NCBI GenBank assembly: GCA_030668875.1
Contig: DAOVER010000041.1
Coordinates: forward strand, 1-25,957
DNA length: 25,957 nt
Reading direction: 5' to 3'
Source: Candidatus Heimdallarchaeota archaeon
GTDB lineage: Archaea; Asgardarchaeota; Heimdallarchaeia; Heimdallarchaeales; Heimdallarchaeaceae
In this document: piece by piece, positions 10,184 through 12,862 of the stretch
How positions within the stretch are numbered: the stretch's first letter is position 1
Layout: each line of letters starts with the position of its first letter
Program-made: the position numbers and the translations under genes
The notes under the pieces: model-generated
What the model was told of the DNA's origin: nothing
Seen by the model: only the letters and a program-made list of their open reading frames with translations
The model's database searches: none

Positions 10184-10268
10184 AGTATCACCGAGAAGTA
10201 TACTCGTCAGTATTACTTAAACCTTTTTGTAAAAAGAGTGAGTATTAGGTTTCTTCAAAAACAATATT

Positions 10269-10349
10269 CTAATCAGTAAACACTTCACTCATTTCTGATA
10301 TCCTTACAGCTGATTGGTGCTTAAAATACATCTCATATAGTTCCAAATA
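10269..10349 (-). repeat. Displaced degenerate copy of the 3' end of the ABC exporter gene
   Basis: Ungapped alignment to 11051-11131 (66/81 nt by hand count); reads YLELYEMYFKHQSAVRISEMSEVFTD* against YYELYETYFKHQSAEWISEISEVFTN*. Confidence 0.93.
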
Positions 10350-10399
10350 GTGCCTTACATTCATCAATGTTTTACAGAGGATTGGTTGAATCTCTATTT

Positions 10400-10969
10400 T
10401 CAGATCTTTTGGTTTCTTTTTCTTATTCTTCTGCAAATAATTGTCAATAAGATAATTGAGGGCAGAAAAATTATAAATCCATATCTATTACTTTCTGGAC
10501 TATTGAGTGTAAAAAGGACGACCCACTCTGATTCATAGATGTCATAAGAAACACTATAAACGAAACAGAGCAATTTTATTTCAAGAATCTGATCTACTTT
10601 ACTCTCATTATAATAGAGTGGTGAAGATTCTTCATGATACGTCTCCATTTCTTCCAAATTATCAAAACGGATATATTCAATCTGTTCATAAGGTCCAGTT
10701 TTTAACTCTAAGTGGGTTTTCAACTGTACCACCACGCTTGCAACTGTGAATAACTCATGTGGTTTGTAAACTAATTTAACTTTTAGTGTTATTTTTCCTT
10801 GAGCATGATGTAAATCTTCCGGTTTAATGTTACCAGAAACAGCTATTATTCCATTGCTTGGGATATTGAATTCCACAGAATTGGTAGAATCTTTAGAATA
10901 AACAGGTACAAGAGTCACTGAAAAACCCATTATAAATACAAAGAAGATAATAATTATTCTTTTTGTCAC
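10400..10969 (-). CDS. Secreted, C-terminally anchored surface protein
   Basis: Signal peptide MTKRIIIIFFVFIMGFSVTL; C-terminal TM plus basic tail RRIRKRNQKI. Confidence 0.78.
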   Translation of the reverse strand: MTKRIIIIFFVFIMGFSVTLVPVYSKDSTNSVEFNIPSNGIIAVSGNIKPEDLHHAQGKITLKVKLVYKPHELFTVASVVVQLKTHLELKTGPYEQIEYIRFDNLEEMETYHEESSPLYYNESKVDQILEIKLLCFVYSVSYDIYESEWVVLFTLNSPESNRYGFIIFLPSIILLTIICRRIRKRNQKI

Positions 10970-11050
10970 AAAATAACATAACTAAATTGAATATATTAAA
11001 TTTTTCAAGAAGTGAATTATTGTTCTATTTTCAAAACGAGAGACTCATTC

Positions 11051-12862
11051 TTAATTAGTAAACACTTCACTTATTTCTGATATCCATTCAGCTGATTGGT
11101 GTTTGAAGTAAGTTTCATAGAGCTCATAATACAATCCTTTCTTCTTTATCAATGCTTCGTGATCTCCTTCTTCAACAATTTTTCCTTGATCCATAACAAT
11201 TATTCTATCAGAATTCTTGATAGTAGTAAGCCTATGAGCAATGACAATAGATGTTCTGTCAGCAAGAAGTTTATCTAACGCTTCTTGTATCTTCCACTCA
11301 GTATAGGCGTCAACAGCTGCTGTTGCTTCATCTAAAATCAATATTTTAGGATTAGCTAAAAGAGTTCTTGCAAAAGAAATCATCTGTCTTTGCCCAGCTG
11401 AAAGCCCTTTACCTCTCTCACCTAATTCTGTTTCTAAACCATCAGGTAAAGCGTCAATAAATTCCTGAGCAGCAACAATGTTGATAACTTTCTCAACTTC
11501 TTCTTTGCTAGCTGTAGGGTGACCATATCGAATGTTATCTAAAACGGTTCCACTGAAAAGAAAAACGTCTTGACTAACTAAACCAATTTGTGAACGCAGA
11601 TTATGCAAATCATATTCACGGATATCTACATCATCGATTTTGATAGAACCTTTGTTAATATCATAAAACCTCATTAACAACGAGGCAATAGTCGTTTTCC
11701 CTGCTCCTGTGTGACCAACAACTGCTATAGATTCTCCTGCTTTAATGTCTAGATTGATATCTCTCAAAACAGGCACACTTTCTTCATATTGTTGATGAAC
11801 TTTCTCGAAGGAAATATACCCTTCTAATTTCTTAATCACCGGGTTAGATGGATTAGTAATTTCTATTTCAGCATCAACAATACTGAATATTCTCTCCATT
11901 GCTGCAAATCCTGATTGTATTATTGAAAATTGTGAAGCTACCCTTAAAAGCGGATATAGGAAACGATTGAGTAATAATAAGAACAGAAGAATGGTCGATG
12001 CTGTCGCTAAATTACTGAATATTAACGAACTACCGTAGAGTGTGATTCCGAAGTATCCGAGAATGCTAATACCATCCATTAGTGGCCAGACGCCCATAAC
12101 AGCGAATGCTCTTTTCTTTGCGTATTTGAAAGTATCATTGTTGATTACTTCAAATTCCTCTTTGGACTTCTCTTCTCTTCCGAATGCTTTAGCTATAGAT
12201 ATTCCTGATACACTTTCTTGGAATGAAGCATTTACAGCACCAATGGCTGCTCTCCAATCACCAGTCGTCCTTCTTGTTATTCTTCTAAATGTAAGAGCAA
12301 CAAGAAATACAAATGGAGCCATGAGAAGAGTAACCAAAGTCAATCTCCAATTCACTATAAACATCCATAGCAAAACTGTAACTAATATTAGCAAGTTTGA
12401 GACAAATTGTGTAACAACATTGAGCATATCTGTTAATTCTTGTGAATCATTTGTTACTCGACTCATTATTTGCCCTGTTGCTTGTCTATCAAAGAACATC
12501 AAATCTTGTTCTTGTAAGCTGACGTATGTTTCAATTTGTATTTGTTTGATTATTTTTTGAGTTACAATTGTTACCATTATCCCCACTACAACTTGAACCA
12601 CCCACAAGAATAGTGACAGCAACACGTACCCAATTGCATAAGGTAAAACAGCCAACCATTCAGCTTCTGCTTCTAATAAATCGAAAGCATTTTGCACCAT
12701 AATAGGCGGGAATATTGTTACAACAGCTGATGTGATAATACCTATCATGATAAACATCAACATAGTCTTAAACGGCCCCAAATATCTCAAAAATCTTTTA
12801 ATCAACTCGATGTCAGAATATTGTCGATCGTAAGCAACTTTGGGTCCTATATTTCGCATCAT
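11051..12862 (-). CDS. ABC exporter (type IV, TMD-NBD), subunit with the consensus catalytic Glu
   Basis: Walker A GHTGAGKT, signature LSAGQ, Walker B ILILDEAT, H-loop IAHRL; ATG 12862 follows an SD-like GAGGAGGAG. Confidence 0.95.
   Translation of the reverse strand: MMRNIGPKVAYDRQYSDIELIKRFLRYLGPFKTMLMFIMIGIITSAVVTIFPPIMVQNAFDLLEAEAEWLAVLPYAIGYVLLSLFLWVVQVVVGIMVTIVTQKIIKQIQIETYVSLQEQDLMFFDRQATGQIMSRVTNDSQELTDMLNVVTQFVSNLLILVTVLLWMFIVNWRLTLVTLLMAPFVFLVALTFRRITRRTTGDWRAAIGAVNASFQESVSGISIAKAFGREEKSKEEFEVINNDTFKYAKKRAFAVMGVWPLMDGISILGYFGITLYGSSLIFSNLATASTILLFLLLLNRFLYPLLRVASQFSIIQSGFAAMERIFSIVDAEIEITNPSNPVIKKLEGYISFEKVHQQYEESVPVLRDINLDIKAGESIAVVGHTGAGKTTIASLLMRFYDINKGSIKIDDVDIREYDLHNLRSQIGLVSQDVFLFSGTVLDNIRYGHPTASKEEVEKVINIVAAQEFIDALPDGLETELGERGKGLSAGQRQMISFARTLLANPKILILDEATAAVDAYTEWKIQEALDKLLADRTSIVIAHRLTTIKNSDRIIVMDQGKIVEEGDHEALIKKKGLYYELYETYFKHQSAEWISEISEVFTN

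Follow-up and report, generated by a model that had tools for sequence, protein, structure and literature searches.

The metagenome-assembled genome GCA_030668875.1 of Candidatus Heimdallarchaeota archaeon (3.23 Mb, G+C content of 33.8%, referred to as G000) was analysed at contig DAOVER010000041.1, its contig C66, over a window of 25,957 nt whose DNA is present in sequencing runs from marine sediment. The window encodes an ABC exporter half-transporter, named here ABC_B, and the 3′ end of this gene is found three times between the gene itself and a convergent DJ-1/PfpI gene. ABC_B is the second half of a heterodimeric pair whose partner ABC_A lies upstream at 12864–14675 on the minus strand. 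It was called as a 603-aa protein on the sibling contig, and its orthologues are present throughout the genus with 75–93% identity. The order in the window is ABC_B with its working end (tail 3), a gene for a 189-aa protein, a displaced end (tail 2), a vapBC pair, a short remnant (tail 1) and DJ-1, and these features were located as follows.

8922–9542, plus strand: DJ-1/PfpI gene (Pfam E = 1e-24), convergent with ABC_B and the conserved far border of the insertion site.
9550–9567, minus strand: tail 1, the presumed oldest gene-end remnant, 18 nt (five codons and the stop), located by 18-mer match.
9568–10183, minus strand: cargo 1, a vapBC toxin-antitoxin pair, with vapC at 9568–9966 and vapB at 9953–10183.
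10184–10268, minus strand: flank belonging to tail 2, in front of vapB, holding a palindrome (10184–10217) and orthologous to a flank in the related genome G010.
10269–10372, minus strand: tail 2, a displaced gene end of 104 nt (35 codons minus one), supported by alignments, tblastn and repeat search.
10400–10969, minus strand: cargo 2, the gene of a 189-aa ORFan without Pfam match, the sole open reading frame (ORF) between tails 3 and 2.
10970–11050, minus strand: AT-rich spacer between the ABC_B stop and the cargo gene, without significant match to the old flank or to the G010 flank.
11051–11157, minus strand: tail 3, the working gene end (last 35 codons and the stop), homologous to the displaced copy in alignments.
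11051–12880, minus strand: ABC_B, a 609-codon ORF with the Pfam domains ABC_membrane and ABC_tran.

The last 27 codons of ABC_B recur without any gap at 10269–10349 on the minus strand, with 66 of 81 nt and 20 of 26 residues identical. The copies differ at 15 positions, 7 of which fall in synonymous codons including the stop, and our own codon count thus agrees with that of an earlier note which had described this repeat from the letters of the DNA. The same pairing was returned by a repeat search (10270–10349 against 11052–11131, 83% identity) and by tblastn of the ABC tail against the window, where the displaced copy gave E = 3.8e-9. When a 3-nt deletion of one codon was allowed in a gapped alignment with the orthologues, the displaced copy was carried to 10372, which makes it 104 nt long and bears out the earlier suspicion that the similarity might reach about 10369. 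The looser similarity claimed for some 45 bp past the stop did not hold up, as the spacer at 10970–11050 gave z = 1.7 against shuffles when compared with the old flank, which is not above chance, and a likewise non-significant z = 2.2 with the G010 flank. This spacer probably holds the promoter of the 189-aa gene. The longest identical run between the copies is 15 nt and lies inside the repeat, and there is no identical core at the repeat boundary. The earlier note had said that the ANL-type hairpin is missing here, and in 9500–11250 neither a hairpin, the attC type of integron cassettes included, nor a terminator-like site was found.

The three copies are in different states. Tail 2 is decaying, because it carries five non-conservative changes (T to M, EW to VR, I to M and S to L) at residues that are invariant in 14 orthologues, in addition to the 3-nt deletion. 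Compared with the same orthologues, the working tail 3 also has substitutions at invariant (S to Y and D to N) or near-invariant (T to A and M to I) residues. Tail 1 stands directly 3′ of the vapC stop, with 7 nt separating it from the stop of DJ-1. Of its 18 positions, 14 agree with the consensus tail end and 15 with the tail end of the related genome G002. Only three 18-mers in the window score that high, and these are tails 1, 2 and 3, the genome-wide rate being 1.6e-5 per position. The old tail, together with the end of the cargo gene read out of frame, makes up a 55-codon ORF at 10269–10436 on the minus strand, which is an annotation trap and probably no real gene.

The arrangement is not an assembly artefact, because contigs from four runs of one study cross all the junctions with zero mismatches and a depth of 20–38×. 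The insert-bearing form is the dominant one in the contigs of these runs. A contig of run X4 (2.3×) that joins 10203 to 11052 and skips 848 nt was not used as evidence, since it rests on 30 nt on one side at 85% likeness and may come from a relative. At 9928–10068, three of the four runs show a doubled summed contig depth (about 75× against 35×), and in every run contigs break at 9950–9976, with loose ends that are G+C-rich and unlike the host genome. Other organisms in the samples seem to share this short stretch, which lies at the vapB/vapC overlap.

The site was then compared among related genomes, which are denoted here by G numbers. The stops of ABC_B and DJ-1 overlap in G002 and are 6 nt apart in G016, and nothing, including vapBC, stands between the two genes in either genome; both thus present an empty site. 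In G010, the closest relative, a single ABC_B tail is followed by a flank of the tail 2 type, where its contig ends. The 45 nt after the tail 2 stop and the 45 nt after the single ABC_B stop of G010 agree at 34 of 45 positions without gaps (z = 9.1). From this orthology, which is absent at the working-stop spacer, tail 2 and its flank are seen to be the older, resident arrangement, and the proximal copy would have arrived together with the 189-aa gene. The native copies are the distal ones, as tail 1 adjoins DJ-1 in the same manner as the gene ends of G002 and G016 and the old tail of G001 do. The third tail copy and the empty sites in the relatives therefore make the locus a stack, in which vapBC would have been inserted first and the 189-aa gene second, with relatives keeping the earlier stages. 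The proximal tail also has unique substitutions where the old tail agrees with the relatives, on few sites. No tandem copy of ABC_B was found among about 17 orthologous loci.

Both cargo segments are compact, ending 0 and 27 nt after a stop codon. As the earlier note had read it, exactly one gene lies between tails 3 and 2 and a vapBC pair follows the old tail. VapC has a PIN domain (E = 5.8e-8), and the 72-aa antitoxin VapB shows a weak match to RHH_12. By hydropathy, the 189-aa protein is predicted to have a signal peptide (aa 4–24), a strand-rich middle, a C-terminal membrane helix (aa 164–180) and a basic end. No homologue of it was found in 39 relatives, and a search among 5.8 billion proteins returned only itself, from the same population. 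AlphaFold2 run on it without an alignment gave an unusable model (predicted local distance difference test score of 35). An exact-pattern scan of metagenome contigs for the junction of tail 2 and its flank gave zero matches.

At least six further old ends of ABC_B were found in relatives of the genus and on one metagenome contig, with different cargo. The old tail measures 44 nt in G001 (cargo, a TPR protein), 212 nt in G006 (a 234-aa membrane protein) and 169 nt in G009 and G012, where one common event brought an M28 peptidase and where the old tails carry the flank found after the single tail of G007. A further old tail of about 54 nt is on the metagenome contig L090, and G014 has an orphan ABC_B tail on another contig. 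Between genomes, the old tails thus start 18, 44, about 54, 104, 169 and 212 nt before the stop. A single att core is excluded by this comparison, because the junction positions at one and the same gene vary. The cargo of G006 is homologous to the next gene behind ABC_B of G004, with 62% identity, and is 55% identical to the resident paralogue of G006 past the old tail. The incoming piece therefore looks like a relative's tail with its next gene, added beside the resident one, and an adjacency of the donor type does exist. In G009 and G012, the two 192-nt tail copies are 97% identical and must exchange sequence by gene conversion, because variants found in one genome alone are present in both of its copies. 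A serine recombinase gene (Resolvase domain) with a 106-aa partner lies about 0.4–1.1 kb past the old ABC_B tail on contigs L028 (G009; L028:3501–4238) and L031 (G012); G007 lacks it at the corresponding position.

The recurrence of displaced ends in G000 was checked by a genome-wide self-search of the kind that the earlier note had proposed. The last 60 residues of each of 2,735 called ORFs were used to find orphan copies with an aligned stop within 10 kb. Orphan tails downstream on the same strand gave 14 matches at 13 loci; as controls, 4 were upstream and 1 was on the opposite strand. One of the matches, on contig C9, was a false positive arising from the tail shared by the ribosomal stalk proteins P0 and P1. 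The credible displaced-end loci within 10 kb downstream number 12, whereas random placement of all such orphan matches predicts 0.23. Unrelated genes act as the parents, among them those of a DegV-family protein, an M20 peptidase, a UvrA-like protein, an amino-acid kinase and a subtilase. The cargo comprises histidine kinase, patatin, radical SAM, PAP2, TetR, formate transporter, ABC transporter, MarR, LRR and NosD-like genes as well as toxin-antitoxin pairs, and neither an integrase nor a transposase was found among the scanned cargo proteins, which were most of those of at least 90 aa. The repeats extend 44–322 nt before the stop, and 6 of the 14 measurable ones end within 8 nt of the stop codon, which is where homology between lineages ends. 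These loci uphold the earlier proposal of a general addition of tail and cargo that is independent of an att site. When displaced gene heads (5′ ends) were looked for, small paralogues made the result noisy and there was no directional excess.

Among these loci, that of the UvrA-like gene on contig C57 could be compared with empty sites in G002 and G021; at sites where its old tail is like the relatives, the working tail shows substitutions of its own. The relatives are not syntenic at the C61 locus. Another stacked locus is at C47:12208–20369, where displaced tails of a DegV-family gene occur one after the other at 5.4 and 7.1 kb downstream of it, with patatin, TetR, radical SAM, PAP2 and formate transporter genes in its cargo. 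A further 148 orphan tail-like matches with aligned stops (57 genes) were more than 10 kb away or on other contigs, and may be dispersed gene-end fragments or multi-copy families.

The ABC_B locus is one border of a 7-kb variable islet (3931–11050) between two convergent conserved genes, which is rich in toxin-antitoxin pairs; the length of the corresponding stretch is about 3.9 kb for G016 but about 10 kb for G002. The other border is a 384-aa gene (2776–3930), which has tail copies of its own. The relevant features of the islet are given below.

3872–3976, 6446–6563 and 7238–7323, plus strand: three tail copies of the convergent 384-aa gene.
5435–6382: MNT/HepT pair.
6573–7231: vapBC pair.
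7392–7926: mazEF pair.
9568–10183: vapBC pair (cargo 1 of ABC_B).

Each tail of the 384-aa gene has, after its stop, a conserved hairpin (CAACC, 7 nt, GGTTG) and then a T-run. G002 also has three tail copies of this gene and G016 at least two, and the cassettes between them (MNT/HepT, vapBC and mazEF) are common to G002 in a different order.

We consider it reasonably probable that the repeat at ABC_B was left behind by two additive insertions, one after the other, into the 3′ end of this gene, anchored by homology and made without a dedicated recombinase. Homology-facilitated illegitimate recombination (HFIR) is a process of this kind, with one homologous anchor and one illegitimate junction, and has been shown in Acinetobacter, Streptococcus, Pseudomonas and E. 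coli conjugation (PMC3240628). The ancestral state would have been that of G002 and G016, with the ends of ABC_B and DJ-1 0–6 nt apart, and because of this spacing, an insertion between the two genes must cut a gene end. The first insertion would have brought a fragment with a homologous end of the ABC gene, the 3′ flank of that end and vapBC, leaving the last 18 nt of the original beside DJ-1, and the second would have brought another ABC gene end with the 189-aa gene, leaving 104 nt of the previous end. In each of them, one crossover would take place in the conserved ABC gene, and the other end of the incoming DNA would join illegitimately in the last codons of the resident. The proximal copy would keep the gene intact each time, and the older copy would fall silent and decay. 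With touching convergent genes, only insertions that bring a substitute end would spare both genes, and the tail would be duplicated because selection keeps such insertions.

Additive recombination anchored by homology is suggested because the junctions are variable, a recombinase is lacking, the distal copies are native and the similarity ends at the stop. We infer the donor origin of the proximal tails, the way in which the second junction was made and the choice between a linear fragment and a circle. When the divergence profile of ABC_B against G010, G002 and G016 was inspected for the left crossover, no boundary was visible, as the species were 5–30% diverged with mosaicism all along.

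Several points weigh against this interpretation. HFIR is, to our knowledge, untested in Asgard archaea and is not known to have been demonstrated in this archaeal group. The 189-aa gene is not seen beside an ABC_B orthologue in any genome, and no donor was found in the data searched. The working tail is nearest to that of G010 (13 differences in 104 nt), so it is not demonstrably foreign in a four-point comparison on few sites. The ends of the cargo, lying so close to a stop, are tighter than a random illegitimate join predicts, and the recombination between the tail copies of G009 and G012 also fits a circle or gene-conversion model. Finally, HFIR is rare in bacterial experiments (PMC5361080). 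The tight cargo ends and the gene conversion in G009 and G012 are the reason why two of the four alternatives, a circular intermediate and an in situ duplication, stay alive.

In the first of these, which we regard as unlikely, cassettes would move as circles without an integrase. A circle of tail segment and cargo, made between two tail repeats or by end joining, would enter a resident tail by a single homologous crossover of the Campbell type, and the tail repeats would be att-like sites of an integron-like array. The stacked arrays at both convergent genes of the islet, the tightness of the cargo (one gene or operon), the mazEF and MNT/HepT cassettes that the 384-aa gene has in common with G002 in a different order, and the homogenised tail copies of G009 and G012 would all be in keeping with such circles. 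As in integron arrays, the newest cassette sits at a fixed point and the older ones are pushed outward, and the cargo is tight and often a single gene or a toxin-antitoxin pair; unlike in integrons, the ABC_B locus has neither an attC-like hairpin nor IntI, and the repeats are pieces of a host gene. However, no circle or excision product was seen in the contigs of the four runs, and the ABC tail copies of the window, being 76–83% identical, are poor substrates for homologous recombination. The final structure would be the same as that of the linear model, and independent acquisitions can explain the differences in order. A wider version of this idea, that duplicated gene ends in the Heimdall group are the sites of a cassette system working by homologous recombination without an integrase, in which circles of tail and cargo, often toxin-antitoxin, re-enter the same gene in other genomes and build integron-like arrays, seems to us unlikely too.

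A duplication made in situ appears decidedly unlikely. In that case, cargo from elsewhere would have been inserted at a staggered break or by template switching during replication, and the insertion would have duplicated the resident tail, much as in a target-site duplication of great length; the copies would then have diverged. The near identity of the two 192-nt copies in G009 and G012 with their common genome-specific variants agrees with this, and so does the C57 locus, where the repeat contains 82 identical nt in its middle part and homologues of the cargo are located away from the parent gene in other genomes. A staggered cut, however, does not predict that 6 of 14 repeats end within 8 nt of the stop. 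Moreover, tail 2 is no closer to the working tail (25 differences in 104 nt) than to the tails of G010 (20) or G016 (19), and the working tails have unique changes where the old tails match the relatives.

The repeats could also be remnants of site-specific elements that target and restore the 3′ end of a gene and whose integrase was lost or acts in trans, which we consider very unlikely. The prophage-like elements e14 and phage 21 integrate into the 3′ end of E. coli icd and supply a substitute end; they encode an integrase and depend on a single, fixed core site. A displaced gene end is what such elements classically leave behind. The resemblance to e14 at icd is one of footprint only: as there, the gene end is duplicated here, with a functional proximal copy, a silent distal native copy and many synonymous differences. 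The serine recombinase gene of G009 and G012, about 0.4 kb past the old tail after the 106-aa ORF, would speak for the same origin. Unlike at icd, an integrase is missing from the ABC_B locus, the inserts are very small and the junction positions differ: a 0.7-kb insert holds a single, non-recombinase gene, and at least six junction positions exist at one gene, without an identical core at the repeat boundary. To serve twelve unrelated target genes, many different specificities would be required. The Phage_integrase family of tyrosine recombinases (PF00589) had no match at E ≤ 0.001 in the 92%-complete G000, in contrast to all 14 of 14 control genomes, so genes of this family are either unassembled in G000 or very divergent. 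The five serine recombinase genes of G000 are all on other contigs and none is on C66. The aloposons of Heimdallarchaeum (PMC8813620) were considered as candidates and ruled out, as they use tRNA sites and contain giant genes.

It is extremely improbable that the fragment is the last remnant of a complete, decayed tandem ABC paralogue, for even though ABC exporter genes are paralogous and often tandem, with ABC_A lying just upstream here, and the four upstream orphan tails elsewhere set a background rate, these stand against 12 downstream ones, the loci of the relatives have empty sites and no tandem ABC_B, the fragment starts 27 nt after an intact unrelated gene with its similarity stopping at 10372, and its flank is orthologous to that of the only ABC_B tail of G010; the refutation that the earlier note had envisaged, with no other cases in the genome and a tandem origin of the fragment, is thus not what was found.

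For homology-anchored addition at a gene end, the kind of event is already known from bacteria. HFIR was proposed for the sequential displacement of the ends of type VI secretion system (T6SS) effectors (Kirchberger et al, 2017, PMC5361080), where the displacement of rhs C-termini is also cited as attributed to HFIR (Jackson et al, 2009, PMC2935791). The ABC_B locus resembles the displacement in Rhs, contact-dependent growth inhibition (CDI) and T6SS genes in that a conserved upstream part is in common, a new 3′ end comes with downstream cargo and the old end is pushed downstream; repeated events stack the orphan ends, no integrase is involved and cargo of the toxin-antitoxin or immunity type is common. 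As in experimental HFIR, DNA without homology is added through one anchor and one illegitimate junction. It differs from Rhs, CDI and T6SS in that the ends are equivalent copies of a conserved housekeeping-type tail and not alternative toxin tips, and in that the targets are a dozen unrelated ordinary genes in an Asgard host, with an ORFan membrane protein and vapBC as cargo at ABC_B. The papers on Asgard mobile elements that were consulted (PMC8813620; for Atabeyarchaeia, PMC11529989) do not describe this pattern. It differs from the known cases in that ordinary genes undergo like-for-like replacement of their ends about a dozen times in one Asgard genome, with three layers at one gene and living intermediates in relatives.

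The stranded old ends matter for annotation, as such orphan tails create spurious small ORFs like that at 10269–10436 and mark recently acquired cargo. They form a layered record that orders the insertions. The locus shows a compact Asgard genome gaining genes without the machinery of mobile elements, by way of the end of a conserved gene and a substitute end, and with about a dozen of these scars in 3.2 Mb, the route seems to account for a noticeable share of gene gain in the closest archaeal relatives of eukaryotes.

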